A DNA stretch of 32,000 nucleotides from Wolbachia endosymbiont of Cimex lectularius (GTDB lineage Bacteria > Pseudomonadota > Alphaproteobacteria > Rickettsiales > Anaplasmataceae). A program made the translations under genes and the position numbers. The DNA is taken from NCBI RefSeq assembly GCF_000829315.1, contig NZ_AP013028.1, forward strand, positions 150,001-182,000, given 5' to 3'. Below are positions 5,336 to 26,973 of this stretch, piece after piece; the first letter of the stretch is position 1; each line of letters opens with the position of its first letter. The notes below the pieces were generated by a model. That model did no database searches and had not been told where the DNA came from. It was given only the letters and a program-made list of their open reading frames with translations.

Positions 5336-5820
5336 GACAACAGTGGAAAAAAATTATAACGTCATTCGATAGAGACGAAAAAAACTACTTGACAAATTCT
5401 TTCAATCCTTTTATCATAGTATTGAAGCTATTTGTTTAACTTCCCATCTGTACAGGTAAAATGACAAGAAAACTTGTATTTGGCGTACTATTGTTTAATT
5501 TTTCGCACTATGTGCACTGCATGTCTTTTTAAAACTTCGGGTTTTTGCCCATACAAGCTGAAACGCGCTTATAAGTCGTTTAAGACATCACCCAACGCCG
5601 GATTTTAAAATAGAGAGTGGAATAACTAGCTACCTCGGGTTTTTATTGTCTTTTTCTCCTGCCTGGTAAATTTCTTAAATATTATAGCTTGGACTAGTTG
5701 CGTTTAAAAGCAGCTAAATTGCAGCGTTTAAGACATAAAAACGCCAATACTAAAAATAAATACCGACTAGGGTTTCTTTTGCTTTTTTTTCTCTATTTGG
5801 TAAATTTCTTAAATATTTTA
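5336..5820 (+). repeat. promoter-bearing modular intergenic repeat, type 1, copy a
   Basis: Homologous along its length to the reverse complement of 8397-8821 and of 22114-22527. Modules in order: GACAACAGTGGAAAAAA, AAAAAACTACTTGACAA, core CATACAAGCTGAAACGCGCTTATAAGTCGTTTAAGACA, and two tails GGTAAATTTCTTAAATATT at 5665 and 5799. Confidence 0.75.
5389..5417 (+). promoter_or_regulatory. sigma70-like promoter inside repeat copy a (TTGACA-17-TATCAT)
   Basis: Exact TTGACA at 5389-5394, a 17-nt spacer ending CCTTT, and TATCAT at 5412-5417. An A-tract lies immediately upstream. Confidence 0.5.
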
Positions 5821-6116
5821 TCTGAGGCAATTTGAGAGCACACAAAAAACACCAATGTTAAAATAACTGCTTTTTAGTATGCAAGAAGTCTGCTCGTATC
5901 TGTTCAAAGGTATGGTTAAGATACAAGTGAAAAGACTTTAAATTTTTGCTTCAAACCACATTACACCGTATTTAGCCCATTTTTTCTAGCTCGTTCAACC
6001 ATTTTCTGCCGCTTCGCTGCGTTTCATAAGGTAGTGAGTGGATGTTTTTTCGGTATGCTAAAATCCAAGAAAGTTAGTTTTTGTGCTATAATGGTCCTTT
6101 ATTGAAAATAGCGTTG

Positions 6117-6513
6117 ATGGATATCACTACTGGTTTATTAGAGGATATTAGTAATTTAATAGATAGAGCAAAGAATCATCTCTCCACGCAGTTCAATTCT
6201 ACTTTAGTGTTATTAAATTGGGAAATTGGCTTTAGAATAGACCAAGAAATCTTAAAGCACAAACGTGCAGGCTATGGCAGACAAATCGTTTCTCGGCTTG
6301 CGAAAGAACTTCAGATTAAATATGGACGCGGATTTGATCAAACCTCATTGTCTCGAATGGTCAAATTTTCCAAACTATTTTCCAATCAAGAGATTCTTGC
6401 GACAGTGTCGCAAGAATTAAGTTGGTCACACTTTGTAGAAATTATTGCAATTTCTGATAATCTGAAGCGCGACTACTATTTAGAGATGTGTCGTGTTGAA
6501 GGATGGAGTGTTA
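6117..6513 (+). pseudogene. DUF1016/YhcG-like protein, N-terminal fragment truncated by IS copy 2
   Basis: MDITTGLLEDISNLIDRAKNHLSTQFNSTLVLLNWEIGFRI...YGRQIVSRLAKEL resembles the N-terminal domain of DUF1016 (YhcG) proteins, from memory of that family. The frame runs straight into the IS end at 6514, and the C-terminal nuclease-like domain is absent. Confidence 0.6.
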
Positions 6514-6575
6514 GAACCTGTTTAAAATCTTGGAAATGTGAGGTAAAGTAAGCATAGATTAATAATGAGGTGTCT

Positions 6576-6889
6576 ATGCAGAAAAGTTATCCAAGTAATA
6601 TAAGTCAAGAGCAGTTTGAAAAAATCAGGCCAATTTTGGAGAGTGCAAGCAGAAAACAAAACCAAGAAAACTTGATTTGTATGACGTATTTTGTGGGGTG
6701 TTGTACGTCTTAAAAAGTGGTTGTCAGTGGAGGATGTTACCAAAGGGTTTTCCAAGATGGAAAAGCGTATATTACTATTTTCGAGTGTGGAGTAAAAAGA
6801 ATGGAGAAGAGCCAAGCTTGTTGGAATTAGTCTTAAAAAAAATTAGTTGGAGAGGTCCGTATCAGCAATGGTCGGAAAGAGAAAACTAG
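6576..6889 (+). pseudogene. IS transposase orfA, copy 2, disrupted by a 1-nt deletion
   Basis: ATG at 6576 follows GAGG. Copy 3 reads GAGAGTAGCAAGCAG where copy 2 reads GAGAGTGCAAGCAG (near 6643). This shifts the frame, so only the C-terminal 70 codons (6677-6889) remain as an ORF. Confidence 0.7.
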
Positions 6890-7364
6890 CTTTTGTATAA
6901 TTGATTCTCAAAGCGTTAAAAACGCAGATACTGCTGAAAAAAAAGGCTATGATGCAGGTAAAAAGATTTCAGGGATAAAGCGCCATATTGCAGTTGATAC
7001 ACAAGGTTTGCCACATGCAATTTATGTAACAACGGCAGAAGCAACTGACCGTAGCAGTGCTGTGAAAATGGTCGAAAATGCTAAAGCAAACCTCTCTGAA
7101 GTTAAAAACATACTGGTTGATGCTGGCTACACAGGAGAAAATTTTGCAACACAAATAAAAGCTATCATTGGTGCGACTGTTGAAGTAATAAAGCGAAGTG
7201 AGTTACACACTTTCGTCGTATTGCCAAAAAGATGGGTTGTTGAACGCTCTTTTGCCTGGTTAGAAAAGTGCAGGCGATTGTGGAAAAATTGCGAGCGGAA
7301 GCTCAACACTAGCTTACAGATGATAGTCCTCTCCTTCATTTCTCTCCTGTTACGAAGATTTTAA
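6837..7364 (+). CDS. IS5-family DDE transposase, orfB frame (copy 2)
   Basis: Same frame and protein as 43-570 in copy 1, with an A8 run at the internal homopolymer. Open from the junction A8 tract. Confidence 0.65.
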   Translation, partial: KKLVGEVRISNGRKEKTSFCIIDSQSVKNADTAEKKGYDAGKKISGIKRHIAVDTQGLPHAIYVTTAEATDRSSAVKMVENAKANLSEVKNILVDAGYTGENFATQIKAIIGATVEVIKRSELHTFVVLPKRWVVERSFAWLEKCRRLWKNCERKLNTSLQMIVLSFISLLLRRF

Positions 7365-7372
7365 ACAGGTTC

Positions 7373-8182
7373 TAATAGCTAGAATTAAAGGAGTATCTCC
7401 TTCCTTATTTGCTGCATTAACATCCGCTCCTTCATTTATGAGATGTTCTACGTCCTCAATATTACCATCCTTGGCAGCGCTAAGTAACTTGTCATTATTG
7501 GATTTTTGTGCACTCTGCAATAGATCTTTTATTTCTTGGTTAGTAGTTAAGTCTACAGGAATCTTTCCATCGTTGTTTTTCACATTAATACTCGCTTTTT
7601 TATCCAATAAAGCTTTTACTATATCGACATAACCAAATTTAGCAGCCCAATGTAAAGCAGTATACTTATCTTTATCCACTGCATTAATACTTGCTCCTTT
7701 ATCTAATAGAAGTTTTACTACATCTGTCTTGTGCCATACTCAGCAGCCACCTGTAAAGGAGTTCTTTCGTCTTTACCTGTTACTGCATCGACGCTTATTC
7801 CTTTATCTAATAAAGCGTTTATTATTTTTATATAGCCATGTTTGGCAGCAACATGTAAAGGAGTATATCCCCAATTGTCTTCCACATTAATATTTATTCC
7901 TTTAGCGGTTAATAGGGTGTCTAATACATCTTCCTTGCCATATTAAGCAGCAGAATGCAAAGGAGTATATCCATATTGACCTTTCACATTAACATCGATC
8001 CCTTTTACTTTCAATAGAGTTTCTACTGTCTCTTTATGGCCATTTGTAGCAGCCCAAATTAAAGGAGTATCTCCATTTTTATCCACTACATTAACATCAG
8101 CTCCTTCACTTATCAGGCTTTTTACTTTCTCAATATCACCATTCTTAGCAGCATTAAGTAACTCAGTATTTAGATTGCTCAT
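7373..8182 (-). pseudogene. ankyrin-repeat protein, degraded (in-frame stop, frameshift, IS truncation)
   Basis: Repeated G.TPLH.AA..G...vv..LL..GA..N units on the minus strand. ORF 7943-8182 ends at a TAA inside a repeat (HSAA*YGKEDV). The frame is then lost near 7738 (AAEYG-HKTDVV). ORF 7350-7679 ends ...TPLILAI followed by RTCLKSS* read from the IS terminal repeat. Confidence 0.8.
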
Positions 8183-8271
8183 CCCGTCTCCATCGTAAAA
8201 TTGTATTATTGTGGCAAAGTTATTAACAATCTATGATCTCTGATGTACAGCCACAAAAATACGAGAAGTTC

Positions 8272-8373
8272 TCATACCAATTCCCATTACATGGAACAAT
8301 AACGAGGAAAAGGTCCATACTTAAGCAAGAATAGCGTGGTAAAGTGGTATATCTGCTCCCTGTGTAATGGGAA
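8272..8373. repeat. perfect 21-bp inverted repeat separated by 60 bp
   Basis: CTCATACCAATTCCCATTACA (8272-8292) and TGTAATGGGAATTGGTATTAG (8353-8373) form the pair. A related half-site, CTAATACCAATTCCCACTACA, lies at about 5311-5332. Confidence 0.7.
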
Positions 8374-8396
8374 TTGGTATTAGCTATAAAGTCCAA

Positions 8397-8821
8397 GAAA
8401 ATATTTAAGAAATTTACCAAGTAGAGAAAAAAAAGCAAAAGAAGCTCTGGTCAATATCTGTTCAAAAACATTGGCATCTTTTTAGCCTTAAACGCTGCAA
8501 TTTAGCTGCTTTTAAACCGCAACTAACCTTAGCTTAATGTTTAAGAAATTTACTAAGCAGAAAAAAAGACAAAAGAAATCCCGTGGTAGAAGTTGCTCAC
8601 TCTCTAATCCTGCAAATTGGCGTACTATACTGTCTTGAACGACTTATAAGCGCGTTTCAGCTTGTATAGGGAAAAACCTAGAAGTCTTAGGTGAAATTAA
8701 TAAAAACATGAGGTGCACAGATTGAAGCTAAATAAATAGCTCCAATATCATAATAAGGGAACTGAAGGAATTTGTCAAGTAGTTTTTTGGTTCTGTTGAG
8801 TAGCTTTTTTCCACTGTTGTC
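8397..8821 (-). repeat. promoter-bearing modular intergenic repeat, type 1, copy b (inverted relative to copy a)
   Basis: The reverse complement aligns module by module with 5336-5820. This includes TTTTTTCCACTGTTGTC (8805-8821), TTGTCAAGTAGTTTTTT, the conserved core, and two tails at 8400-8418 and 8535-8553. Confidence 0.75.
8750..8778 (-). promoter_or_regulatory. sigma70-like promoter inside repeat copy b (TTGACA-17-TATTAT)
   Basis: The minus strand reads TTGACA AATTCCTTCAGTTCCCT TATTAT, an exact -35 with a 17-nt spacer. Confidence 0.5.
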
Positions 8822-8899
8822 TACTATTATGTAATAAAGCCCGGTAGCTATTGATTTTTACAACTAGTGCAGATACGATAAAACTTTAAGCACTGAATA

Positions 8900-10435
8900 A
8901 TGGAGCAATTTGGAAACTTTTACATCACTACGCCAATATATTACGTAAACGACAAACCTCACATTGGTCACGCATACACCTCCCTTTTGTGCGATGTAGT
9001 GGCAAGGTTTATGAGACTTGCTGGAAAGAACATCAAATTTACTACCGGTACAGATGAGCACGGGCAAAAAATCGAGAAAGCAGCCAAAGCACGGGGAATG
9101 CAGCCAAAGGAATTTACAGATGAAGTAAGCGTTTCATTTAGGGAATTAGCTAAGTCCATGAATTTTCAATATGATGATTTTATCCGCACTACGGAAGAAC
9201 GTCACGAAAAAGCAGTAATAGCTCTATGGAATAGGCTTGAAGAGAGAGGACAAATATATCTGGATTCTTATTCAGGTTGGTATTCAGTCCGTGATGAAGC
9301 ATTTTATCAGGAGTCAGAGTTGATAGATGGCAAAGCACCAACAGGCGCGGAAGTTCAGTGGATAAAAGAAGAAAGCTACTTTTTTCGTTTGTCGAATTGG
9401 CAAGACAAATTACTGGAGTTATATGAAAATCAGGCAAATTTTATCTTTCCTGAGAGTAGAAAAAATGAAGTGGTATCGTTTGTAAGGTCAGGACTCACTG
9501 ACCTTTCAATCTCTCGCACTAGCTTTAATTGGGGGATAAAAGTGCCAGGCAATGACAAACACGTAATCTATGTCTGGATTGATGCACTCACTAATTACCT
9601 CACGTCAGTAGGCTTTCCTGGTACTGAAGGTGAAGAATATAAGAGGTTTTGGGCAAATGACAGCTCTTCCAATGTTCATGTAATCGGTAAAGACATACTG
9701 CGCTTTCACGCCGTATATTGGCCGGCGATTCTCCTTGCAGCAGATTTGCCGCTGCCAAAGCAAATTGCGGTTCATGGTTGGTGGCTCAGCGAGGGGGAAA
9801 AAATATCCAAGTCTCTTGGCAATGTCATAGATCCAATTGGCTTGGCTAAAGAGTTTGGCGTTGATCAGCTACGCTATTTTCTCCTTCGGGAAGCAAGTTT
9901 TGGCCAGGATGGCAACTTTAGCAAGAAAAATATGATCAGCCGAATAAATTCAGAACTGGCAAACAATATAGGCAATTTAGTGCAAAGAACAATTTCATTT
10001 TTACACAAACAATGCTCGGGAATTGTACCAACAGTTGATCAAAGCCTACTTAAAGACGAGGAAAGTCTTCCAAATTGCGAAGCTATACTTGATAAAGCGA
10101 CGGATCATCTATCAAAGTACGAGTTTAACCAGATTATACTTTTAATTATCAACATCTCCTCTGAAGCCAACGCTTATATAGATAAAAGTGCACCCTGGAC
10201 ATTAAGTAAAACCGATAGAGAGCGCATGAATTTAGTAATCTACAAATTGCTCGAATATATCAGGATAATTGGCATTCTGTTGCAGCCAATTGTCCCAAGG
10301 TCAGCAGAAATGATACTCGATCAATTACAAATTCCAAAAGAACAACGAGATTTAAAATCTCTGTGCAACGCGTGCGTAAGCTTAGGTATTACACTACTTA
10401 GACCTACGCTGGTTTTTTTGAGGGTTGATGTGTAG
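8900..10435 (+). CDS. metG: methionine--tRNA ligase (short form without C-terminal tRNA-binding domain)
   Basis: Class I synthetase signatures PHIGHAYT (HIGH) and KISKSLGN (KMSKS). 511 aa. Confidence 0.9.
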   Translation: MEQFGNFYITTPIYYVNDKPHIGHAYTSLLCDVVARFMRLAGKNIKFTTGTDEHGQKIEKAAKARGMQPKEFTDEVSVSFRELAKSMNFQYDDFIRTTEERHEKAVIALWNRLEERGQIYLDSYSGWYSVRDEAFYQESELIDGKAPTGAEVQWIKEESYFFRLSNWQDKLLELYENQANFIFPESRKNEVVSFVRSGLTDLSISRTSFNWGIKVPGNDKHVIYVWIDALTNYLTSVGFPGTEGEEYKRFWANDSSSNVHVIGKDILRFHAVYWPAILLAADLPLPKQIAVHGWWLSEGEKISKSLGNVIDPIGLAKEFGVDQLRYFLLREASFGQDGNFSKKNMISRINSELANNIGNLVQRTISFLHKQCSGIVPTVDQSLLKDEESLPNCEAILDKATDHLSKYEFNQIILLIINISSEANAYIDKSAPWTLSKTDRERMNLVIYKLLEYIRIIGILLQPIVPRSAEMILDQLQIPKEQRDLKSLCNACVSLGITLLRPTLVFLRVDV

Positions 10436-10447
10436 AGTATGCAAAAA

Positions 10448-10912: not shown

Positions 10913-11025
10913 TATATACCTCACTAGAATTAATTTATTATTAAGGTTATAGCACAAATAAAGAGATATGTTAACTTTATTAATGAATCATAGTAAGGAT
11001 AGCATTGATAAAAGATTGCTGAAAG

Positions 11026-12590: not shown

Positions 12591-12673
12591 GCCCCTGTGG
12601 TGGAATGGTAGACACGGCAGACTCAAAATCTGTTGCTTGCAAAAGCATGCTGGTTCAAGTCCGGCCAGGGGCA
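12591..12673 (+). tRNA. tRNA-Leu (anticodon CAA), class II with long variable arm, CCA not encoded
   Basis: Acceptor stem GCCCCTG pairs with CAGGGGC. Anticodon stem-loop is GCAGA-CTCAAAA-TCTGT (anticodon CAA). Long variable arm GCTTGCAAAAGCATGC. T-arm contains GGTTCAAGTCC. Confidence 0.85.
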
Positions 12674-12694
12674 CTCAAATGTTGGAAAGTGCTT

Positions 12695-13303
12695 ATGTTA
12701 CATAGATTTTTTGATCGCTTATTTTCTATTCTCTCTTCTATGAATGCTATTCAAAAGGTGAAAAAGGATGAAAGTGGAATATGCTATGTAACGGGATTTA
12801 GGCGCTATATATCGGTATTGCTTGATTTAATTATTATCGTTTTGTTCTTACAGTTCTGCAGCCTGGCCGCAAATCAGCTCTTTACAAACTCAGAAGACAG
12901 AAAAATATTGAGCGACATAGGTGCAAAATATCTGGTGCAAACGCCACTTTCTGCGGAAGAAAGGGCAACACAGAGCAAACTTGTTAAATTAATGGTTCTA
13001 AATCAAATAGTCCAATTTATTATACTATTTAGCTATGTTGCATATATGTGGATAAGGTTCGCTGCTACGCCTGGAAAACTACTACTTGGGCTCAGAATTG
13101 TGGATGAACAGACTTTTGGAAAAATGACCCTAAAACAAGCAACGAAGAGGTTTTTCTCCTTTATATTGTCAGTTGCTCCATTATTTTTGGGTTTTATATG
13201 GTCAAATTTCGACAAACGCTGCCAAACTTGGCACGATAAGATCGCAGGCACAGTGGTTGTCACGAGCAAAAGCCTTAGAAGACAGGACCAAAAAACTACT
13301 TGA
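12695..13303 (+). CDS. RDD-family membrane protein
   Basis: ORF track starts at 12605 inside the tRNA. The in-frame ATG at 12695 is the realistic start. It has GFRRYISVLLDLIIIVL and C-terminal WHDKIAGTVVV, as in RDD-domain proteins. The stop codon TGA (13301-13303) lies inside the TTGACA of the adjacent repeat. Confidence 0.7.
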   Translation: MLHRFFDRLFSILSSMNAIQKVKKDESGICYVTGFRRYISVLLDLIIIVLFLQFCSLAANQLFTNSEDRKILSDIGAKYLVQTPLSAEERATQSKLVKLMVLNQIVQFIILFSYVAYMWIRFAATPGKLLLGLRIVDEQTFGKMTLKQATKRFFSFILSVAPLFLGFIWSNFDKRCQTWHDKIAGTVVVTSKSLRRQDQKTT

Positions 13304-13570
13304 CAAACTTTGCCAGTCCCCTTACAATAGAGTTGTGGGTGTTTTAGGCCTAAAATTTATCTTTAATCTTTGTATTAAGTGACAAAAGCACAGTATAAAA
13401 CAAGGCGTGTTATGTTTAATTTTTGCAGCATGGACACTGCATGTCTTTATAAATTTTTGTCTACATTAGCTGAGCCCCGCTTACTAAGCGGTGTAAGAGA
13501 GAATCGGACACCAAGTTTTTGAGAGAACAGTAAACAACTCACGTTGCGGGGTTTTTTTTGTCTTTTTTTT
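13290..13570 (+). repeat. promoter-bearing modular intergenic repeat, type 2, copy c
   Basis: Near-identical to 26682-26930 apart from a 33-nt indel and a few substitutions. More distantly homologous to the type 1 copies (core CTACATTAGCTGAGCCCCGCTTACTAAGCGGTGTAAGAGA). Ends GCGGGG-T8-GTC-T8. Confidence 0.75.
13300..13328 (+). promoter_or_regulatory. sigma70-like promoter inside repeat copy c (TTGACA-17-TACAAT)
   Basis: Exact TTGACA at 13300-13305, a 17-nt spacer ending CCCT, and TACAAT at 13323-13328. Confidence 0.5.
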
Positions 13571-13606
13571 AAATTAGTTAAAAATTTAACCAATCTCATT
13601 TTTTTC

Positions 13607-13790
13607 ACAAAAAAATTGCTTGACAAGTTTTGACGTTTCCCTTATCATAAATTATGGGTATTTACAACCCCAAGGTCAGCTACTTGTCAAGCGTATAGAG
13701 CATTAACGCCAAGTTATTAAAATAGATATTGATCAGGGCTTCTTTTGCTTTTTTTTCCGCTTGGTAAGTTTCTTAATGTTTAAGCTAAAA
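13607..13790 (+). repeat. short promoter-plus-tail unit of the same repeat family
   Basis: AAAAAAATTGCTTGACAAG... is followed about 120 nt later by GGGCTTCTTTTGCTTTTTTTTCCGCTTGGTAAGTTTCTTAATG (tail at 13763-13781). The unit abuts the addA stop codon. Confidence 0.6.
13620..13648 (+). promoter_or_regulatory. sigma70-like promoter in short unit (TTGACA-17-TATCAT)
   Basis: TTGACA at 13620-13625, a 17-nt spacer ending CCCT, and TATCAT at 13643-13648. Confidence 0.5.
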
Positions 13791-16700
13791 ATCAGATTGC
13801 AGGGTCAAGTTTTCCACCCAAATGACCACGCACTCTATCTGCTTGTTTGGATATATTTCTTGCACTAAGGTTTTATAGATCGACATTTGCTTTTTTATTT
13901 CATTTAACGAGGAAGCAGAAACACTGCAGTGTGATTTATAATCAATTATGATTACTTTATCTTGCGTTATACACAGCCTATCTAGCCGTACTAATATCGG
14001 CTCTCCGTCAATTGTTCCACTTAGTGTAATTTCTGATTTGCCTTCTAAATCGAATAGGTAATCATATTTTTCATTAAAGGCTAATATTTTATTGTAAATT
14101 TCATCTTTATCTTCCCTGCTGTTCATATTATCGAGATATTTTCTTACCCAAATTTTTCTCCTGTCTTTCTCTATCTTAGGCATATACTGCAATATGCTGT
14201 GGATTATTAGGCCTCTTGCATAGCCATCTGTTATTCCAGCACTTATCATCCCAGTGCTCCTTTTTTTGTCATCCCAGTGCTCCGACACTGGGATCCATTC
14301 TTTTTTTTCACCGGATTCCAGCATCAAGTGCTGGAATGACAAAGGGGAATGCTGGGATGATACCGGAGGGTGAGTAGTTGATGCTGGTGTTCCTTCTTTT
14401 TCCTGGATTCCAGTGTCAGCTACTTGGATGACAAAGGGGGGTGCTGGTTCTCCTTCTTTTTTACTGGATCCCAGTGTCGGAGCACTGGGATGACAAGAAA
14501 AGGAGGCACTGGGATGGCAGGAGAAGGGGTGCTGGGATGACATTGATAGGTTTGGTGGAGGGGAAATTACTGGAACATCAAAATAATCACGTTTTTTATA
14601 AACAGAGGGGTAATTTGCATTTACACACAGTACTTCAACCCTTTCTTTAAATATTGGACGTAAATCTGCTTGTTTTTTCTCATATGGTTCCCCGTGCCTA
14701 GTAATTATATCATACCAAGAGTTCTTTTGTACTGGCTCTTTACCTAAAATGTATAACTCATCTTCAGCACGCGTGAGTGCTACATATAGCAAACGCAAAT
14801 ATTCATTATAATCCTCTAGTTTTTTCTCTCTTTTTACTTGATCACAATAAGCGTTATCGTTTTTTCCACACCAAAATGGTGCTTCCATTGCATCAAAAAC
14901 AATGCTTTCACTGTTTCTTGGCACTGTGTTTGTATCAACCAAAAACACTATAGGAACTTGTAGACCTTTTGATTTATGAATTGTCATTATTCGTACAGCA
15001 TTGCGTTCTGATTGCATATCGTTTTTAATCTCCAGATTATTCTCCTTGATCCACTGAACAAATGCTTGAAGAGATGGGTTTTCAAATTGCAGCACAAGGT
15101 TCATAAATTCATCTAAGATCTCAAAGCACTCAAGACCTAGCCTTGCAGCAAATTTCTTCTTGCCTGTGCGCAATACATGCGTGAATAATGTAAGAGAGGA
15201 CTCTGCACGGGATAAGTCAATGAGATAATTTAATTCACTATAGATGACCTCACAATAATCCTGAAGTCTTTTCCATAATGACTGTTCTTTACGGTCGTGT
15301 GCAATATTGAATAAATCATCCTCAGTGAAATTAAATAGAGGTGATTTTAAAACATTCGCAAGAGCCAAATCGTTTGTCGGCAGGAGTAAAAATTCAGCTA
15401 AAGCTATCAAGTCCTGCACAGCTATATAGTCCATGATTCTGAAATAGTCCCGTCCTATAACCGGTACGTTTGCTTTTTTAAGTTCGCTTATTACGTAGTC
15501 AACTAATACGTTTCTTTGCCGTACCAGGATCATAATGTCCCTTGGTTCTATATGACGATCTTTAGCGACTAAAATCCGTCCTTCATTTAACCAATTGCGA
15601 ACTCTGTGGGCTATTGCCTGAGCGAGCAACCGCTCTGCTATTACATGATCTTTTCTCTGTGCTAAATGAATTTGTAAGGCTTGCTGCTTTTCCTCTTTAC
15701 ATCTTGGTAGTAATGGCCAAATTTCAATGTATCCTTGATCGTTTTCTCTATGAGGAATATGTTTTATTTCACTATCGACAAAAGATATCTCTTCACGAAA
15801 GTTGTTAAATAATCTGTCTACAAGTGCTAGAATGTGCGGAGTAGAACGAAATGATTTTTCAAGTTGACATGATATCCACTCTCTGCCGCCGGTTTTTGTG
15901 TGAAAGTATTGTTGCATGTAGTTGAATAGGTGAGGATTTGCTCCTTGGAATCTGTAAATAGATTGTTTTACGTCACCAACAACAAACAAGGTTCGCTTTT
16001 CATCACCATCGGTAAAAAATTCATCACAGAGATTTGTTATAATTTTCCACTGACTGATACTATTGTCTTGCGCCTCATCAACGAGGATATGGTCTATTTT
16101 TTGATCTAAGTTAAACAACACCCAATCTTTATAATCTGGGTTGCCAAGAAGATTTGTTGCTAAATGGATTATATCATTGTAGTCAAGCAGTGCATTCTTT
16201 GATTTTTCACTATTATATAAATCAGCATACACTTTAAATATTTTGAGTAAACTACTGGTTCTCTTGAATATTTGATAAGAATTCACATCTCTCACATGAG
16301 TAAATACTACATTTTGGATATTTTCTATGATCTGTTCTGCATCTCCGAATTTTTCCAAAGTACCCTTTGTTATGATGGATGATATGCTTTTTTTTTCGTT
16401 TGATTCTGATTTTAGAAATACTTTGATTAGGTTTTCTATATTGGTGTCATCCAAGTAGTTGACGCTGGGATCCATATTTCTTTTTTTCTGGCTTCCAGCG
16501 TCACGCGCTGGAATGACAGATGGTTTACACCAATCGTAGAGCATTGTACTGTAACTTTGATCTCTTTTGCTGCCCTCACTTAGTATTTCAGCCAATCTTT
16601 CCACGTGCTCAATCGTTTCACTTTGTAACCCATGAATTTTATATGGGGCACTCAGCTTACCTTTGATATACTCCAAATCATCTGCTGATAACGGTCTTTT

Positions 16701-17285
16701 TACGCACAAAGTATAAAGCAGGTCGCGTAGTTTGTTTTCATCAACCTCGGCTGCGATGAGGTTAATATCATCCTGCACAGTTTCGTTATGAAGTGTTTTA
16801 TCAAATATGATGGAATGTAATTCTTTGCATTCGCTCAGCGTACAACTTGGAGCGATGCCAGCCTCCACAGGGAAGCTAGAAATTAATTTGTAACAAAAAG
16901 CATGTATGGTCTGGATAGTTAAACCCAGATTTTCCAGTTCAGAGAAAAGCCTTCTTGCTTGACCTTCGTTTTCTCTAGATCCCAGTGTTGTGCTACTTGG
17001 ATGACAAAAAGACGGACTTTGGAATGACATCAAAGAGAGGCCAAATTGCTCTAAGTCTGCTGCCAGCACACTTCCTGAGCATATTGCCCACTTACTGAGT
17101 GTACTGTGAATGCGACTTTCCATCTCGTTTGCTGCAGCATTGGTAAATGTTAAGCAGAGAATATTCCTTTTGTTTTCCAATAAAAGTCTTAATACTCTAT
17201 CTATTAAGATTTTGGTTTTGCCTGTGCCAGCAGACGCGTTTACCCACACAGAGAGGCTAGGATTTATTGCATTTAATCTCATCAA
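13785..17285 (-). CDS. addA: double-strand break repair helicase-nuclease AddA (UvrD-like helicase plus PD-(D/E)xK nuclease)
   Basis: 1166 aa. The N-terminus VWVNASAGTGKTKILIDRVLRLLLENKRNILCLTFTNAAANEM matches the alphaproteobacterial AddA Walker A region. UvrD-like motifs are present (VDEAQDNS, GDVKQSIYRFQGA, TIHKSKGL, LLYVALTRA). The C-terminal nuclease signature is RGLIIHSILQ ... DRLCI ... IIDYKS. Three blocks of palindromic elements are read through in frame. Confidence 0.8.
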   Translation of the reverse strand: MMRLNAINPSLSVWVNASAGTGKTKILIDRVLRLLLENKRNILCLTFTNAAANEMESRIHSTLSKWAICSGSVLAADLEQFGLSLMSFQSPSFCHPSSTTLGSRENEGQARRLFSELENLGLTIQTIHAFCYKLISSFPVEAGIAPSCTLSECKELHSIIFDKTLHNETVQDDINLIAAEVDENKLRDLLYTLCVKRPLSADDLEYIKGKLSAPYKIHGLQSETIEHVERLAEILSEGSKRDQSYSTMLYDWCKPSVIPARDAGSQKKRNMDPSVNYLDDTNIENLIKVFLKSESNEKKSISSIITKGTLEKFGDAEQIIENIQNVVFTHVRDVNSYQIFKRTSSLLKIFKVYADLYNSEKSKNALLDYNDIIHLATNLLGNPDYKDWVLFNLDQKIDHILVDEAQDNSISQWKIITNLCDEFFTDGDEKRTLFVVGDVKQSIYRFQGANPHLFNYMQQYFHTKTGGREWISCQLEKSFRSTPHILALVDRLFNNFREEISFVDSEIKHIPHRENDQGYIEIWPLLPRCKEEKQQALQIHLAQRKDHVIAERLLAQAIAHRVRNWLNEGRILVAKDRHIEPRDIMILVRQRNVLVDYVISELKKANVPVIGRDYFRIMDYIAVQDLIALAEFLLLPTNDLALANVLKSPLFNFTEDDLFNIAHDRKEQSLWKRLQDYCEVIYSELNYLIDLSRAESSLTLFTHVLRTGKKKFAARLGLECFEILDEFMNLVLQFENPSLQAFVQWIKENNLEIKNDMQSERNAVRIMTIHKSKGLQVPIVFLVDTNTVPRNSESIVFDAMEAPFWCGKNDNAYCDQVKREKKLEDYNEYLRLLYVALTRAEDELYILGKEPVQKNSWYDIITRHGEPYEKKQADLRPIFKERVEVLCVNANYPSVYKKRDYFDVPVISPPPNLSMSSQHPFSCHPSASFSCHPSAPTLGSSKKEGEPAPPFVIQVADTGIQEKEGTPASTTHPPVSSQHSPLSFQHLMLESGEKKEWIPVSEHWDDKKRSTGMISAGITDGYARGLIIHSILQYMPKIEKDRRKIWVRKYLDNMNSREDKDEIYNKILAFNEKYDYLFDLEGKSEITLSGTIDGEPILVRLDRLCITQDKVIIIDYKSHCSVSASSLNEIKKQMSIYKTLVQEIYPNKQIECVVIWVENLTLQSDF
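14230..14545. repeat. cluster of 5-6 short GC-richer palindromic elements inside addA
   Basis: Examples: GTCATCCCAGTGCTCCGACACTGGGATCC (14268-14296), GGATTCCAGCATCAAGTGCTGGAATGAC (14313-14340), CCTGGATTCCAGTGTCAGCTACTTGGATGAC (14402-14432) and CTGGATCCCAGTGTCGGAGCACTGGGATGAC (14464-14494). The same element type occurs in intergenic DNA at 20547-20690 and 26971-27000. Confidence 0.7.
16443..16520. repeat. two palindromic elements inside addA
   Basis: GGTGTCATCCAAGTAGTTGACGCTGGGATCC and GGCTTCCAGCGTCACGCGCTGGAATGACAG. They are translated as ...CKPSVIPARDAGSQKKRNMDPSVNYLDD... Confidence 0.65.
16975..17032. repeat. palindromic element inside the addA N-terminal region
   Basis: AGATCCCAGTGTTGTGCTACTTGGATGAC plus GGAATGACATC. 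They are translated as ...MSFQSPSFCHPSSTTLGSRE... (about aa 86-104). Confidence 0.65.
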
Positions 17286-20470: not shown

Positions 20471-20490
20471 GATATTAGAGCTAAACTATG

Positions 20491-20730: not shown

Positions 20731-20812
20731 TCAAATTGTAGTTTTCATATCAAGCACTGAAAGACGTTGTTTATACTTTTGCAGATACAATTTATGTGTT
20801 ATAATTTAAACT

Positions 20813-21286: not shown

Positions 21287-21332
21287 TTTATGCAAATGTT
21301 ACCTATTAGTTGATTTTTACATCAAAAAACTC

Positions 21333-21360
21333 TTGACCGAGGTGGTTTTTTACATATAAT
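21333..21360 (+). promoter_or_regulatory. candidate promoter for the 21396 gene (TTGACC-16-TATAAT)
   Basis: AAAAAACTCTTGACC at 21325-21338 and TATAAT at 21355-21360. The A-tract plus CT.CTTGAC prelude resembles the repeat-borne promoters. Confidence 0.45.
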
Positions 21361-21395
21361 TTTAAGTATATTAATAATTTATTAAAGAGGTAGTT

Positions 21396-22028
21396 ATGCC
21401 AATTTTCAAAAACCATCGTGGTCAATTCCACAAAATGAACACTGCACTTGTTGCACTTACTTCTCTGTATGTCATAGGCGCAGCAGTAGCACTTTCATCA
21501 CCATATTGGGCGTCTTCATGTCCAGTTCTAGCTCCACTTGCAACTTTTGCAGCTACACTACTTGGAATGGGTATATTAGCATTTGTTGCTATTGCACTAA
21601 CTGGCTTAGCAATACGCGCCATCAGCAAAAATAACGAAATATCTGAGGAGAAAGCTCCGAAGATTACTAAGGATGGGTTGTTAGTAAGAAGAGACGTATA
21701 TGAGGAAATGAAGAAAAATAACCAAGTTAAAGATGATAATGGTAATGCCAAGTCAGGTCAATATTATATAGACTTCAACTTGGGAGACAAGAACTACCGT
21801 GTTATTATTGGCGATAAGCTTGACGAGGAGCGAGGTAATACTTTACTCTTCAAGACATATTCACTAGAAGTGAAAGGCACTGACGGTAAATATGCTCCGA
21901 TGGCTAATAAAAATAAGGAATTGGAAGCATTAGGTTTAAAACAATCTAGTGATGAGATTAACACTTATTTAGGCAAGCTTTCTTCTGTTACACCTGCTGT
22001 ACAAGGACAAGGAAAAGGACAACAATAA
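21396..22028 (+). CDS. hypothetical membrane-anchored protein (ISKNNxISE hinge family)
   Basis: ATG follows AGAGG. Two N-terminal TM helices are followed by RAISKNNEISEEK and a soluble C-terminal domain with no homology I recognise. A clean terminator follows. Confidence 0.6.
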   Translation: MPIFKNHRGQFHKMNTALVALTSLYVIGAAVALSSPYWASSCPVLAPLATFAATLLGMGILAFVAIALTGLAIRAISKNNEISEEKAPKITKDGLLVRRDVYEEMKKNNQVKDDNGNAKSGQYYIDFNLGDKNYRVIIGDKLDEERGNTLLFKTYSLEVKGTDGKYAPMANKNKELEALGLKQSSDEINTYLGKLSSVTPAVQGQGKGQQ

Positions 22029-22051
22029 GCAGTATAGCTTAAGTAAAACAA

Positions 22052-22080
22052 AGAGGTAGGCTAAGTCTACCTCTTTTTCT
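22052..22080 (+). terminator. rho-independent terminator
   Basis: Stem AGAGGTAG (22052-22059), loop GCTAAGT, stem CTACCTCT (22067-22074), then TTTTT. Confidence 0.75.
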
Positions 22081-22113
22081 TCTAAAAGTTTTTGAATTTC
22101 GAGCACCAAGTAA

Positions 22114-22527
22114 CAGGATACTACTTTAGTAATAAATATTTAAGAAACTTACCAAGTGGAGAAAAAAGCAAAAGAAGCCCCGTGGTGGCTAGTTATTTAC
22201 TTTTGTGTCGAAATATTGGCGTTTTTTTATCCTAAACGCTTAATAAGTGCGACTTAGCTGCTTTTTAATGCAACTAACCTTAGCCATAAACATTTAAGAA
22301 ATTCACTAAGCAGAAAAACAGGCAAAGAAACCCCGAGTAGCTAGTTATTCACTATCTATCTTATAACATTGGCGTTTTTGATGTCTTAAACGACTTATAA
22401 GCGCGTTTGAGCTTGTATAGGTAAAAAACCAGAAGTTTTTTTGTCGTTTAATCTGCACAGACTGAAGATAAATAATAGCTTCAGTCTCATTATAAGGGGG
22501 TTGAAGGAACTTGTCAAGTAGTTTTTT
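22114..22527 (-). repeat. promoter-bearing modular intergenic repeat, type 1, copy e
   Basis: The reverse complement aligns with copies a and b (core CTATACAAGCTCAAACGCGCTTATAAGTCGTTTAAGACA). Tails lie at 22135-22153 and 22289-22307. It shares the extended tail ...TATTACTAAAGTAGTATCCTG with copy d. Confidence 0.75.
22489..22517 (-). promoter_or_regulatory. sigma70-like promoter inside repeat copy e (TTGACA-17-TATAAT)
   Basis: The minus strand reads TTGACA AGTTCCTTCAACCCCCT TATAAT, so both hexamers are consensus. Confidence 0.55.
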
Positions 22528-22603
22528 CGCACATGCCAAAGTTGGTTAAATATGCGAAGAGTCTATTGACACTGAGTATAATCTGGAGTAGTGGTAAATA
22601 GCA

Positions 22604-24097
22604 ATGTTTAAAAGTATTTTCACATTTAGTTTTTTTACAGCTATTTCAAGAATTTCAGGGCTAATAAGGGATATATTAATTGCCATGGTTGTCGGTGCAA
22701 CTCCTCTTGCAGATGTATTTTTTTCTTCGTTTCGTTTTGCCAATCTATTTCGAGCGTTTTTTGCAGAGGGAGCGTTCACTACCTCTTTTATACCGTTATA
22801 TTCAGCAGAATCACGTGATAATAAAAAGGCATTTAGCTTTGCAAGTAGTGTAATATCTCTCACGTTTGTTGTTTTATTGATTTTTTGCCTTATCACGCAG
22901 ACTTTCTTTCCTTATATGATTCAAGTATTCACTCCTGGATTTGACCAAAGCAAACTTGCCCTCACTGTGACTTTATCAAGAATTATGATGCCTTACATAA
23001 TTTTTATTTCAATAGCATCACTTATCGGGGGAATGTTGCAAGTAAAGCAACATTTTGTTTCAACAGCCATTGCACCGATCATTTTGAATCTCTGTCTAAT
23101 TGTTAGTCTATTTGTGCCTTACATAAAAACACCGGCCCACAATCTCTCCATAGCTGTCCTGATTGGAGGGATTTTTCAACTATTGTTGATGCTGTTTAAT
23201 GCATATAAATTAAAGGCTGCATTTTTTTTTAGCATAAAATTAAATAATGAAGTAAAGTTGTTTTTTAAGCGTGTAATACCAGCAATTATCAACAACTGTG
23301 TAACTCAGATAAGCCTATGGATTGATACAATTATGGCCAGTTTTATACCAAATGCAGTGTCCTATATATATTATGCCGATAGACTAAATCAACTACCGCA
23401 AGGAGTAATTGGTACTGCAATTGGTACAGTGCTTCTTCCTTTAATCTCAAAACAAGTAAATGATACTGAAAAGATAGCCAAAATACAAAGCAAAGCTCTC
23501 AGTGTAGGATTAATATTAATTATGCCAACAACTGCTGCTTTTATTATTATTCCTGACATAATTTTACTTACGCTTTTTTCTTACGGTAAGTTTGATCACT
23601 ATGCAGTGCAGCAGACTGCTCCTACGTTGATAGCGCTTTCTCTTTCTTTACCCGCATTTATTATAAATAAAGCATTGCTACCCACGTTTTTTGCTAAGGG
23701 CAATTTAAAAATACCAACTATATTCTCACTAATGTGCCTTGGAATCAATGTGGTGCTAAACCTCTTGTTAATGCACAAATATCAGCACACAGGGATTGCT
23801 ATCGCTACTTCCATCTCCACTTGGATAAATTCTATTCTGCTAATTAATTATCTAACAATAAATAAAATGTATAAGATTAGCCAAGTATTACTATTAAATA
23901 TCGTAAAAATTCTTATCGCAACGTTGGTCATGTCAATAGTTCTTTATGTTTCTAGTTCCTTATCAGCAGGACTATTTCTCGATACAATATTTGCTCGTGT
24001 CATCCATTTAGCAGCGCTAATATTTTTAAGTGTCGTTGTTTATTTTGGTACTCTTTATTTAATGTTTATGGGCAATTTTAAGTATATAAAACTATGA
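22604..24097 (+). CDS. murJ: lipid II flippase MurJ (MviN)
   Basis: 497 aa and about 14 TM segments. The N-terminus FFTAISRISGLIRDILIAMVVGATPLADVFF is characteristic of MurJ. Confidence 0.85.
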   Translation: MFKSIFTFSFFTAISRISGLIRDILIAMVVGATPLADVFFSSFRFANLFRAFFAEGAFTTSFIPLYSAESRDNKKAFSFASSVISLTFVVLLIFCLITQTFFPYMIQVFTPGFDQSKLALTVTLSRIMMPYIIFISIASLIGGMLQVKQHFVSTAIAPIILNLCLIVSLFVPYIKTPAHNLSIAVLIGGIFQLLLMLFNAYKLKAAFFFSIKLNNEVKLFFKRVIPAIINNCVTQISLWIDTIMASFIPNAVSYIYYADRLNQLPQGVIGTAIGTVLLPLISKQVNDTEKIAKIQSKALSVGLILIMPTTAAFIIIPDIILLTLFSYGKFDHYAVQQTAPTLIALSLSLPAFIINKALLPTFFAKGNLKIPTIFSLMCLGINVVLNLLLMHKYQHTGIAIATSISTWINSILLINYLTINKMYKISQVLLLNIVKILIATLVMSIVLYVSSSLSAGLFLDTIFARVIHLAALIFLSVVVYFGTLYLMFMGNFKYIKL

Positions 24098-26631
24098 GAT
24101 TTTCTATATACACAATATTATCAATCTCTTTAGTGTTAATCCTTTTGCACGTTGCTGCAACTTTCAAGGATTGGAATGGCTACAAGGAGCACATTGTGCA
24201 AAAATTAGAAAATACATACAACGCTAAAGTACGCATTGGAGGAAAAATCAAAGTTTCACTAATTACTCCAAAGCTCACTATTTATAACGTGTACATTCAG
24301 TCCAACAACAATAGAGAGCAAAAATTATCAGATTTGATTAGTATAAATAAAATTGAAGTAAGGCCATCTCTTCTACCGTTGTTTTTACTTTCGCTACAAC
24401 CAAAGTCAATTACATTATTTGGTATGAAAAGCAGTAAAGAAAATTTTGTTAATATTACAAATGAAAAAGCCAGTAAGGTTGATATAATAATAAAAGACAG
24501 CCAAGTAAGTTTAAACAATAACTTCGTTGATTATAGCAATATTGTTAACATAAAAGAGATTGCTATTAAGGGAAATGGGCAATTCTCTGGTGAAGTGAAG
24601 GTAGGTGATAATAATTATGATTTTTCAGGAAAAGTTGATATTACAAAAAAGAATGTACACATTAATGTCGAATCAAATTTTATAAAGTTGCTATTCACAG
24701 GCAACAGAGATCAAGAAGGGCTCCAGGGCAAGCTAACACTGACAATTAATAACAGTTCTGATTTTGTAAGTGATCTAGCAAAGATTATCAATCTTAGCTT
24801 TCTTGCTTACGCTATCCCTAGTGAAAATATCGAGATATCATCTAACATCAACCTCAATGAAGATGAGTTTGCGGCAACTGATTTGAGAATTGATTCCAAA
24901 AGTATGCAAGCTAGCGGTACAATACGAAATGATAGAAAAAATAATCACACTAACGTCAATATTAGCTTCAGTAAAATTGATTTGGATTCTATACAAAATG
25001 ACTCACGAAAAACAACGGAGATAAAGGATCTCCTAGAATGTTTTAGAGATGTTGTGCCAAAAAACTTGAGCCTAGACTTTAATATGGAGGTTTCAAATAT
25101 CCAATACCAAAACAGAGTATTGGATAAATTTCACGCTATGTTAAAACTCGCTGATGGCGAAGTAAAAGTTGATACGCTACTTCAATTCCCTGGAACCAAT
25201 AACATATCTCACCTATCGGGAAAAGTCTCGAATAGTGGTACCTTATCTGAATTTAATGGTGGTTTATTGGTAAAAGGGGATGATTTCGAGTCGTTTATTT
25301 CATGCTTTTTCCCTTCTATAAAGATGAAAGAAAGCGAAAAAAATCAATTTACAATAAGTTCCAAATTACACTTTGCACCCAGGATATTGTCTATTTCAGA
25401 TATTAGATTGCTGAATGATAAAGAATTTTTGCAGGGATCAATTAAAGTAAGTCACATAAAAAAACGTAATGTGATTGGTGGCGGATTTAGTGTACATAAC
25501 CTTAACGCGGACAAATACGATTATTTATTACTCAGTAGCTTATCTAAAATGAAATGGTTGAAAAGTCCGAAGTATGATGTAAATATAGAAACCAGTGTTA
25601 GTGATTTTACACTAAATGATACAAAAATTGAAGACTTGGATTTTTCGTTGAAGATAGAAAAGGGTAAGCTAGTTGCAGACAAGATAAAACTATCAGGAGA
25701 GGACTTTGATATTACCGGCGACATAAAAATATTAGTGGACAAAAAATATATCAAGCCTTTGTTAGATGTGAACCTTACGGGCAATAAATTTAATAGCAGT
25801 ATCTTAAAATTACCGAATTTAATAGAGGTGAAAAGAGATTCAAAAAGTAAGATAAACCAGATTCAATGGTCAGCAAAGCAGCTTAATTTTTTAGATGACA
25901 AAAAAGACTTTGATGCAAATGTGCAAATTAATGTTGCAGAACTTAAGGATGAGCAGGATATTTTGAAGGACTTTAATTTGAATGCAGTGATGATAAATAA
26001 CATCATGACTGTTAAAAAAGTGGATTATGCATTAGGGCATGGACAAGTATCTTTTCAGGGTTATTTAAAGCCAAATTCAATGTATATAAAATTTTTCATA
26101 GCAAATTTGGATACTAAAAGGGTTGGCAAGGTTATAGGAATTAATAATGTCAATGGTCAGATAAGCTTAAATGGCGCAATTAAAGCTCAAGGAAAGAGCT
26201 TTAATGACTGGGCTAATAACTCGTCAGGGGAAGTTAATTTGCAAACACGAGGAATAGAATTTACTAACGTGGATTTTAATTCGTTCATTACTAATTTACT
26301 AAGCAGTAAAAATAAATCTGAAGTTTCCACGCTTACTAACGTTGGTATATATAATGGCAGTACATTTTTTGAAAATGTCAGCGGAAAAGCAAGCATCAAA
26401 AATGGTATATGCTCAACTAGTTTACAATTTGGAATTAATCAAGCGTCAGGGTCTACTTCTTCTAATCTAACCTTATCTAACTTCACTTTAGTTTCTTTAT
26501 CCAGATTTTTCTTCATTCCACCAGGTCGTAGTAGTCCAGTTTATATTGATATGCATTTAGATGGCCCTATTTGGCGTCCTAAGATGAGTTTTGATGAAGA
26601 CCAAATATTTACTACCCTGAATAGGAATTAA
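24094..26631 (+). CDS. AsmA-family outer-membrane biogenesis protein
   Basis: 845 aa with an N-terminal TM anchor and then a long Asn/Lys/Ser-rich beta-type region. Its start overlaps the murJ stop by 4 nt (ATGA). The family call rests on architecture only. Confidence 0.55.
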   Translation: MRFSIYTILSISLVLILLHVAATFKDWNGYKEHIVQKLENTYNAKVRIGGKIKVSLITPKLTIYNVYIQSNNNREQKLSDLISINKIEVRPSLLPLFLLSLQPKSITLFGMKSSKENFVNITNEKASKVDIIIKDSQVSLNNNFVDYSNIVNIKEIAIKGNGQFSGEVKVGDNNYDFSGKVDITKKNVHINVESNFIKLLFTGNRDQEGLQGKLTLTINNSSDFVSDLAKIINLSFLAYAIPSENIEISSNINLNEDEFAATDLRIDSKSMQASGTIRNDRKNNHTNVNISFSKIDLDSIQNDSRKTTEIKDLLECFRDVVPKNLSLDFNMEVSNIQYQNRVLDKFHAMLKLADGEVKVDTLLQFPGTNNISHLSGKVSNSGTLSEFNGGLLVKGDDFESFISCFFPSIKMKESEKNQFTISSKLHFAPRILSISDIRLLNDKEFLQGSIKVSHIKKRNVIGGGFSVHNLNADKYDYLLLSSLSKMKWLKSPKYDVNIETSVSDFTLNDTKIEDLDFSLKIEKGKLVADKIKLSGEDFDITGDIKILVDKKYIKPLLDVNLTGNKFNSSILKLPNLIEVKRDSKSKINQIQWSAKQLNFLDDKKDFDANVQINVAELKDEQDILKDFNLNAVMINNIMTVKKVDYALGHGQVSFQGYLKPNSMYIKFFIANLDTKRVGKVIGINNVNGQISLNGAIKAQGKSFNDWANNSSGEVNLQTRGIEFTNVDFNSFITNLLSSKNKSEVSTLTNVGIYNGSTFFENVSGKASIKNGICSTSLQFGINQASGSTSSNLTLSNFTLVSLSRFFFIPPGRSSPVYIDMHLDGPIWRPKMSFDEDQIFTTLNRN

Positions 26632-26681
26632 AAGTATTAAATGTGTTTTGTTGCCCAAATAGCTATCTAAACCATGGAACT

Positions 26682-26973
26682 AAAAAACTACTTGACAACC
26701 TTCACCAGTCCCCTTACAATAGAGCTGTGGGTATTTTAGGCCTAAAATTTATCTTTAATCTTGTATTAAGTGACAAAAGCACAGTATAAAACAAGGCGTG
26801 TTATGTTTAATTTTTTGTCTACATTAGCTGAGCCTCGCTTATTAAGCGGTGTAAGAGAGAATCGGACGCCAAGTTTTTGAGAGAACAGCAAACAACTCAC
26901 ATTGCGGGGTTTTTTTTGTCTTTTTTTCCACTTGGTAAGTTTCTTAAATATTTATTACTAAAGTAGTATCCTG
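26682..26973 (+). repeat. promoter-bearing modular intergenic repeat, type 2, copy d
   Basis: Near-identical to 13290-13570 but lacking 33 nt, and extended by the tail CTTGGTAAGTTTCTTAAATATTTATTACTAAAGTAGTATCCTG. Confidence 0.75.
26692..26720 (+). promoter_or_regulatory. sigma70-like promoter inside repeat copy d (TTGACA-17-TACAAT)
   Basis: TTGACA at 26692-26697, a 17-nt spacer ending CCCT, and TACAAT at 26715-26720. Confidence 0.5.

Follow-up and report, generated by a model that had tools for sequence, protein, structure and literature searches.

Does an intergenic repeat that brings its own near-consensus promoter to every site encode an RNA, or is the promoter sequence incidental to it? 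The question is raised by a 32,000-nucleotide (nt) stretch of the genome of the Wolbachia endosymbiont of Cimex lectularius (contig NZ_AP013028.1, positions 150,001 to 182,000), called the window here and numbered from its first letter. Six copies of such a repeat, a to f, lie in it, and the original prediction, made from the letters alone, took them for genes of small RNAs (sRNAs). We consider it probable that they are non-coding units transcribed from their own sigma70 promoters, that they are carried on a Wolbachia-specific, recombining, modular intergenic repeat, and that single copies are dispensable.

The promoter modules are far from what chance would provide. Within five intergenic regions, the window holds six modules of the form A-tract/CTTGACAA-17 nt-TAnnAT and eight tails of the GGTAARTTTCTTAA type, where the shuffle expectation is ~0. 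Exact matches to CTRCTTGACA-N17-TAYHAT number five in the window and none in 100 shuffles. The 17-mer AAAAAACTACTTGACAA, said to be shared by five copies, indeed occurs five times exactly, and a sixth time at 13610 with two mismatches (expected, 0.03). As predicted, TTGACA is exact and the spacer is 17 nt long in all six modules; in a sigma70 consensus scan of 5-25 kb, eight sites matched 11 or all 12 hexamer positions, and five of these are family modules. The count of eight tails was likewise correct, with seven occurrences of GGTAARTTTCTTAA at one mismatch or fewer and an eighth tail, AGTGAATTTCTTAA, at 22294-22307(-).

The homology between copies that had been noted downstream of the promoters is real, and it is modular. 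A leader, an optional M module, a core hairpin and a G-run/T-run tail follow one another in this order, with AAGCTGAAACGCGCTTATAAGTCGTTTAAGAC as the conserved core sequence, and copies a, b and e have an extra tandem unit of ~134-154 nt. Upstream of the A-tract, the homology continues in some copies, as with AGACAACAGTGGAAAAAA before a and b. Copy d (13620) represents a third body type, shorter than types 1 and 2. The promoter candidate of a gene for a 210-residue (aa) product, at 21323-21360, reads CAAAAAACT-CTTGACC-16 nt-TATAAT, which is the A-tract/-35 prelude of the family minus one base; it may be a domesticated promoter module or simply the generic strong-promoter form. The caution already voiced about this gene promoter (at 21333) was fair, as the prelude AAAAAACT-CTTGAC is common to it and the family.

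Whether such promoters fire can be seen in homologues from other strains. Among the wMel inserts obtained by 5' rapid amplification of cDNA ends (5'RACE) in Woolfit et al. 2015 (PMC4349823, supplement Table C) are IGR-1021 (5' end 1,190,012) and IGR-1047 (5' end 1,216,539). Both inserts align to the window units over their whole length and begin with GAAGG or GAAGC, 7 nt after the -10. In wMelPop-CLA, Cappable-seq starts classed as orphan or intragenic have been reported at 131390(-), 388537(-), 713865(+) and 1067756(+), and one more start lies beside hemC (PMC12558409). At least five wMelPop-CLA starts have (A/T)-tract-NNNCTTGACA-17 nt-TATCAT in the 50 nt before them, and the 100 nt after them consist of the family leader and M module. 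Mean levels at the family starts are 34-201 counts per million, and several respond to stress, with a log2 fold change of -4.2 for the orphan transcription start site (oTSS) 388537 and of +2.4 for oTSS 131390 (PMC12558409).

In the wMel group, family starts fall on a G or T 6-7 nt after the -10. Of the wAlbB starts on family-like sequence, one lies on a type 1 leader and is not driven by a canonical family -10, and the others belong to family-type promoters joined to other bodies. Starts about 7 nt after the -10, as the original prediction expected, are thereby confirmed by 5'RACE and Cappable-seq for the wMel and wAlbB homologues. The two inserts and the wMelPop-CLA starts share promoter module, leader (GAAGCTATT...), M module, core hairpin and tail with the window units, although they come from another strain and supergroup; this homology supports the view that units of this kind can act as independent transcription units. 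By the same correspondence with wMel units, transcription in the window is predicted to start at 5424, 8743(-), 13335, 13655, 22482(-) and 26727.

The family is not peculiar to the window. Species-representative genomes were scanned with the pattern AAAYTRCTTGACAA-N12-CYYTTAYHAT, which yielded at least 120 matching blocks, ~104 of them from Wolbachia among the matches listed. More than 110 further promoter modules are found in ~10 Wolbachia genomes, often at contig ends. The Wolbachia among the matches listed include wTis, wPaur, wMoz, several metagenome-assembled genomes, and Cantharis and Psylliodes strains; the non-Wolbachia matches among them are unrelated Firmicutes promoters. Overall, the family is present in wMel, wAlbB, wBp and wMoz-like strains. 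When the listed Wolbachia blocks and the window are taken together, 87 of 124 promoter modules lead into a type 1 leader, 15 into type 2 (GTGGGTGTTTTAGGCCTAAAA...) and eight into type 3, with few other bodies. Full units have their M module at ~+98, core at ~+180 and tail at ~+285 from the start of the promoter match, and often a second tail ~134 nt beyond the first. The orientation of the units is random relative to neighboring genes: among the 50 units with enough flank, 23 are followed by a co-oriented open reading frame (ORF) and 27 by a convergent one. BLAST of phage and plasmid collections returned no plasmid match and a single 'phage' match, which is a chromosomal ruvA-rnhB spacer in an UNVERIFIED WO record. 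By this search, the units are not parts of prophage WO or of a plasmid.

Some modules in these genomes depart from the common layout. At L008 6418(-), L090 4759(+), L058 627(-), L114 3338(+) and L122 7330(+), unrelated bodies (GAGTACAATGATACAAAAAATAATATCATAG... or AAGGGTATTTCTGACTCAAAACTTG...) follow the promoter module, and a wAlbB homologue of the first of these body types has a Cappable-seq start. In L106, the end of an IS5 insertion sequence has been inserted ~20 nt after the -10. Copies within one genome can have, as seen at L005, L006, L022, L031, L080, L096 and L117 among others, near-identical leaders and divergent, pyrimidine-rich -35/-10 spacers (AATCTCACCAACCCCCT, ACCCCCGTCAACCCCCT, AGTTCCTCCAACCCCCT, ...); the spacer therefore changes much faster than the sequence on both its sides.

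The original prediction held that consensus hexamers kept in diverged copies are unexpected under neutral decay. To judge this, column identities were taken from 31 copies assembled without selection by the promoter pattern. Identity is 0.97-0.99 in the A-tract/-35 and 0.72 in the spacer; within the -10 it is at least 0.9 at T1, A2 and A5 and ~0.65 at T6. These column identities make the promoter-proximal block the most conserved part of the unit, and they also imply a crippled -10 in about a third of the copies. Among orthologous copies of close relatives, three of four have a mutated hexamer (TTGATA at the e site of L138, TATTGC at the e site of wMoz, and a lost -35 at the f site of wMoz). 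Thus the claim stands for the A-tract/-35, at 97-99% against 72% in the spacer, but not for the whole promoter, as roughly a third of the copies lack the last T of the -10 and most of these orthologues are mutated. At the e site, the unit and its L138 orthologue differ by ~9%, and the adjacent spacer by 6.6%.

Orthologous sites in close relatives are all occupied, with differing bodies between identical flanks. At the f site, after the gene for an 845-aa protein, the window has type 2, L138 has type 3, and wMoz and wPaur have type 1. Where the window has type 2 and type 3 in succession (c/d), wTis has just one body, of type 1. L138 has the M module at the e site, whereas the window lacks it through a deletion flanked by direct repeats of AAAAACTT; the two also differ in how many tandem units they have. 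Such module-sized deletions bounded by direct repeats, and the finding of the same flanks around different bodies, favor recombination among copies. Farther away, the murJ loci of a wMelPop-like strain, of three genomes with 83% MurJ identity and of a 734-kb Menacanthus symbiont have no element, and wBp has one copy 6 kb from its murJ locus; the distant strains that lack the element are too diverged in synteny or sequence to define junctions.

We propose the following course of events. An A-tract at ~-45 to -40, resembling a proximal UP element, would act with the consensus -35, the 17-nt spacer and the TAnnAT -10 to direct initiation at a G or T 6-7 nt past the -10. The RNA would begin with a terminal stem-loop and carry one to three short hairpins. 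Its G-run/U-rich tail may halt transcription only partly, also in the window strain, so that RNAs of ~250-400 nt or longer read-through products would result. The family would persist and diversify by homologous recombination, with the near-invariant P block (A6-CTAC-TTGACAA) and the tail (GGTAARTTTCTTAAATATT) as homology anchors, between which body cassettes (types 1a, 1b, 1e, 2, 3 and others) would be exchanged, deleted or tandemly duplicated; recombination of this kind is also the presumed means of spread. Individual copies would be dispensable, often losing the -10, and would have no locus-specific function.

Several points weigh against this proposal. Evidence of transcription comes entirely from wMel and wAlbB homologues. 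Flank-joining searches found no empty site among close relatives, only occupied sites of differing length. Because the genome scan required intact hexamers, copy counts are skewed to active-looking copies. Finally, selection for RNA function, and not recombination anchoring, could be the reason why the -35 block is nearly invariant and distinct body types persist from strain to strain. A bolder extension, that the units form a genus-wide repertoire of self-promoted non-coding RNA cassettes, shuffled by gene conversion among fixed sites, with the invariant promoter block and the tail as recombination arms, into strain-specific, rapidly reprogrammable sets of regulatory RNAs, possibly including some exported to the host and making up a substantial share of the unexplained orphan starts, strikes us as distinctly unlikely.

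What kind of RNA would be made bears on these choices. For type 1, RNAalifold applied to 23 units gave a consensus fold of -6.49 kcal/mol with a covariation term of -0.49 and double changes in three of 28 pairs. Single-sequence folds had z-scores of -2.1 and -0.5. The global type 1 fold is weak, and a conserved structure backed by covariation is not found. Local elements are more consistent: a 5'-end stem-loop ATTGRAGCT...AGCTTCAAT, with one U-A to C-G exchange and a stem reaching back 4 nt past the start; GCAC-UAU-GUGC; RGG-U5-NCCY, in which G-C is exchanged for A-U; and the core hairpin AAACG(C)GC-UUAUAA-GUCGUUU. A canonical terminator scan did not call the tails as intrinsic terminators. 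The wMel IGR-1047 insert passes through a tail, and the 3' end of the IGR-1021 transcript was scored outside the intergenic region, by reverse-transcription PCR with the downstream coding sequence (PMC4349823).

Type 2 units have a 6-bp GC helix, CCYCGC/GCGRGG, directly before a run of eight U. The pair that is C-G or U-G in other aligned copies is U-A in L063, a compensatory change; L105 has G-U, and in L050 the closing pair is broken. These pairings give modest support to a terminator-like helix, and in type 2 only. The C-to-T change said to preserve the helix as a G-U pair does exist, but in copy f (26692) and not in copy d. Covariation, the suggested test, was weak in the 23 type 1 units, and the type 2 helix has its one compensatory change. 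In Rfam 15, only the tRNA-Leu of the window scored above its gathering score, and the best sub-threshold match on the units, InvR, had E = 0.12 and 21 bits against a gathering score of 60; the suggested search thus assigned the units to no family, whether by gathering score or by a convincing E-value. ORF comparison bore out that no ORF is common to all copies: those that recur are 27-37 aa long, and their frames shift between subfamilies. When the tail was read as a CtrA box or a site for integration host factor (IHF), no consistent motif emerged. Of the sRNA-gene reading in the original prediction, its own promoter, starts mapped in homologues and lack of a shared ORF hold up, whereas the conserved structured body and the terminator find weak support or none.

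If the units were nevertheless trans-acting sRNA genes, they would be multicopy paralogues whose body differences are target specificities and whose expression is kept by selection. Active promoters with mapped starts in homologues fit this explanation, as do the stress response at oTSS 388537 and oTSS 131390, the stem-loop at the very 5' end with the conserved local hairpins behind it, the C-G to U-A compensation in the type 2 helix before the U-run, the spread of the family over wMel, wAlbB, wBp and wMoz-like strains, and an orientation independent of neighboring genes. We nonetheless regard it as possible but doubtful. The type 1 consensus fold is weak and the single-sequence z-scores are -2.1 and -0.5, the tails are not called as canonical terminators and read-through is observed, orthologues lose hexamers and at the e site diverge about as fast as the flanking spacer, the units are absent at orthologous sites of other supergroups and in the reduced 734-kb genome, and no target or seed region was identified. 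The promoter could instead be incidental to a non-autonomous mobile element, akin to the miniature transposable elements with inverted repeats known as MITEs or to PATE, whose left end A6-CTAC-TTGACAA and right end GGTAARTTTCTTAAATATT are recognized in trans by a transposase or recombinase. The element's two ends would then coincide with the blocks of highest conservation, and dozens of copies per genome, all intergenic and breaking assemblies, with presence and absence varying between supergroups, are in keeping with mobility. We think this unlikely, since an inverted-repeat search finds only copy-to-copy matches and no left/right end pairing within a unit (a mere 7-mer, ACTACTT, is common to the left end and the reverse complement of the right extension of e and f), the left boundary is fuzzy, flank joining in close relatives revealed neither an empty site nor a target-site duplication, a linked transposase was not found, and the exact 17-nt spacing and conserved T, A and A of the -10 are left unexplained. 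Elements of the IS200/IS605 type (PATE/omega-RNA), IS110 bridge RNAs, retrons and group II introns were also considered and not favored, as no linked gene or defining end structure was seen.

Two further explanations place the function in neighboring genes or in peptides. Portable promoter or 5'-leader cassettes, selected to drive or tune the adjacent gene, would suit copy b, directed at an ankyrin-repeat gene, and copy a, directed at ORF 6081-6551, as well as the IGR-1021 3' end outside its intergenic region (PMC4349823) and the same AAAAAACT-CTTGAC prelude at the gene promoter 21333. With a co-oriented next ORF in just 23 of 50 units, with c/d, e and f facing the 3' ends of convergent genes, and with ~250 nt of conserved body and a U-rich tail separating the promoter from any gene, such a role is very unlikely for the family. 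That the units encode small hydrophobic or basic peptides, possibly toxin-like, is harder still to believe. A 37-aa form, MFNFLHYVHLMSLLISPRLLGFSLYKLKRAYKSFKTV (type 1), is intact in eight copies, and a 36-aa form, MFNFCSMDTACLYKFLSTLAEPRLLSGVRENRTPSF (type 2), in all full type 2 copies; the 33-nt deletion of copy f is in frame, all three c/f differences within the type 2 ORF are synonymous, and type 2 copies show ~6 synonymous versus ~8 non-synonymous changes, which is not decisive. However, whole subfamilies have ATT or ATA in place of the ATG, the frame differs between subfamilies through 1-nt indels and A-runs of variable length, copies b, d and e do not have the ORF region at all, no convincing Shine-Dalgarno sequence precedes it, and hydrophobic ORFs arise by default in T-rich DNA. 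Self-promoted, non-coding units on a recombining repeat remain the reading that we prefer.

In the window, which has a G+C content of 33-41%, the copies lie among protein genes and insertion sequences. In order, these are hflK, hflC, degP, copy a, IS5, a fragmented ankyrin gene, copy b and metG; dnaB, tRNA-Leu, an ORF, copies c and d, addA and ispE follow farther on; and then come holA, dut, an ORF, copy e, murJ, the 845-aa gene, copy f and IS5. Co-oriented downstream ORFs exist for a and b only; c/d, e and f are directed at the 3' ends of convergent genes. The MurJ of the window is closest to that of wMoz, at 93% identity, and is 83-87% identical to those of other supergroups, and identical MurJ proteins are present in further Wolbachia assemblies. 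Three full or partial copies of one IS5-family element (1-580, 6513-7373 and 27820-28690) are 99-100% identical to one another; one sits between a and b, adjoining the fragmented ankyrin gene, and the copy near 27820 is absent from L138.

Copy a, on the plus strand, is preceded at 5306..5378 by two modules that were identified by direct reading, ATACCAATTCCCACTACA ('X') and AGACAACAGTGGAAAAAA ('U'). U also lies upstream of b and X downstream of it, and U-like sequence precedes many copies in other genomes. The promoter module of a (5379..5417, +), A6-CTAC-TTGACA-17 nt-TATCAT, has its predicted start at G 5424. The type 1 body (5424..5683, +) comprises the 5' hairpin, M module, a GGG-U5-GCCC hairpin, the core hairpin AAACGCGCUUAUAAGUCGUUU and G-run/T-run tail 1, and a second tandem unit (5684..5817, +; period 134 nt) without promoter comprises the hairpin AGTTGCGTTTAAAAGCAGCT, TTTAAGAC and tail 2. 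Copy b (8398..8823, -) is of type 1 with most of its M module deleted. Its U module is at 8823-8789 and its promoter at 8788-8750, with a start predicted at 8743; tail 1 ends at ~8536, and a second unit with tail 2 reaches 8398. The fragmented ankyrin-repeat gene at which it is directed starts at 8180. Downstream of b, read on the minus strand, 8362-8379 and 8274-8291 form an exact 18-nt inverted repeat, ATACCAATTCCCATTACA / TGTAATGGGAATTGGTAT, with ~70 nt between its arms. The same motif (ATACCAATTCCCACTACA) at 5306-5325, just before a, makes this another small family-associated repeat.

Copies c and d stand in succession on the plus strand. Copy c (13287..13600) is of type 2, with its promoter at 13290-13328, predicted start at 13335, the palindrome TTTTAGGCCTAAAA and an M module; CCCCGC at 13484-13489 can pair with GCGGGG at 13546-13551, which is immediately followed by a T8 run. 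Copy c lies downstream of ORF 12605-13303 and is convergent with addA. That 232-aa ORF has no family match; its start is overlapped by tRNA-Leu(CAA) (12591-12674) and its 3' end overlaps the promoter module of c, and probably its true start is further downstream or the ORF is spurious. Copy d (13604..13781) is of type 3 and has a short body, a promoter at 13610-13648 (AAAAAATTGCTTGACA-17 nt-TATCAT), a predicted start at 13655 and the tail GGTAAGTTTCTTAA at 13763-13776, and 4 nt separate its end from the addA stop codon. A type 3 body regularly occurs ~320 nt after type 2 in other genomes. The intact 1166-aa addA frame (13785-17285, -) contains palindromic GGATCCCAGTG...CACTGGGATGACAA elements at 14246-14542, 16461-16523 and 16978-17027, including a tandem array with a 61-nt period, and one more lies at 26973-27010, right after copy f. 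Those in addA look like in-frame insertions of the Rickettsia RPE / Wolbachia WPE kind.

Copy e (22114..22527, -) is of type 1 with the M module deleted. Its promoter at 22527-22489 (TTGACA-17 nt-TATAAT) matches the hexamers at 12 of 12 positions, and the start is predicted at 22482. Tail 1 is at 22307-22294, a second unit follows with tail 2 at 22153-22140, and an extension shared with copy f runs to 22114. Copy e is divergent from murJ and faces a perfect 12-bp hairpin at 22050-22076, which has T-runs on both strands and separates the end of e from the 210-aa ORF. The hairpin looks like a bidirectional terminator that would halt read-through from e. Copy f (26679..26973, +) is of type 2 and has lost 33 nt from its M module. 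It has its promoter at 26682-26720, predicted start at 26727, a CCTCGC/GCGGGG helix that includes a G-U pair, a tail at 26934-26947 and the shared extension to 26973.

That such units are transcribed is not itself new, because members were already seen as RACE products and orphan starts. The wMel and wMelPop-CLA loci appear singly in their papers, each as an isolated intergenic transcript or orphan start, and the accessible portions of the text of PMC4349823 and PMC12558409 mention neither a kinship with a repeat family nor IGR-1021 or IGR-1047 as a named sRNA. Full-text literature searches with k-mers of the unit found no relevant paper, homologues occurring only in supplementary tables, and a family-level treatment was not found in the searchable literature. 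Wu et al. 2004 described unclassified multicopy repeats in wMel, one of which ('family 8') has 45 copies and may overlap with the present units. What appears to be new is the family-level picture of dozens of copies, a complete promoter in each and cassette exchange at fixed sites. Scattered observations are explained when several published orphan starts and RACE products are recognized as belonging to a single repeat family, which has dozens of copies in each genome and whose transcription is under-counted by unique-mapping filters. To our knowledge, Wolbachia is not genetically manipulable, its regulation is poorly understood and only a handful of candidate non-coding RNAs have been named in it. 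The module A6-CTAC-TTGACA-17 nt-TAnnAT offers a compact, strong native promoter for future tools, and the family a tractable system for ectopic recombination and the origin of strain markers resembling variable number tandem repeats (VNTRs) in an endosymbiont. If they act in trans, no larger family of sRNAs would be known from the genus.

The units resemble several known systems in part. Pneumococcal BOX, Neisseria Correia elements and the MITE-derived sRNAs of Coxiella are likewise transcribed, modular intergenic repeats in many copies, able to provide promoters or segments of structured RNA. Terminal inverted repeats and target duplications are features of Correia elements and MITEs, but neither was found in the present units; BOX elements, as far as we know, have no complete promoter of their own, whereas each unit here has a full promoter by its sequence, with a UP-like A-tract, a -35 and a -10. 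The Listeria LhrC1-5 and Bartonella Brt families are paralogous RNAs of ~100-250 nt with their own promoters, some of them in tandem. In families of that type, terminators are clear, folds are conserved and partners or targets are known; the present units, in contrast, number dozens and decay at individual loci, with weak evidence for fold and terminator. Within Wolbachia, VNTR-141 and VNTR-105 are intergenic, with periods of 105-141 bp, hairpins of ~23 bp and copy numbers that vary between close strains (Riegler et al. 2012, PMC3287509). Tandem units in the present family repeat every 134-154 nt and contain a hairpin, and their copy number differs between the window and L138; the likeness is architectural only, and PMC3287509 mentions no promoter for the VNTRs, unlike the units, which carry one. 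The units may be kin to VNTR-type markers. We conclude that the units belong to a known kind, that of transcribed intergenic repeat families and multicopy non-coding RNAs.

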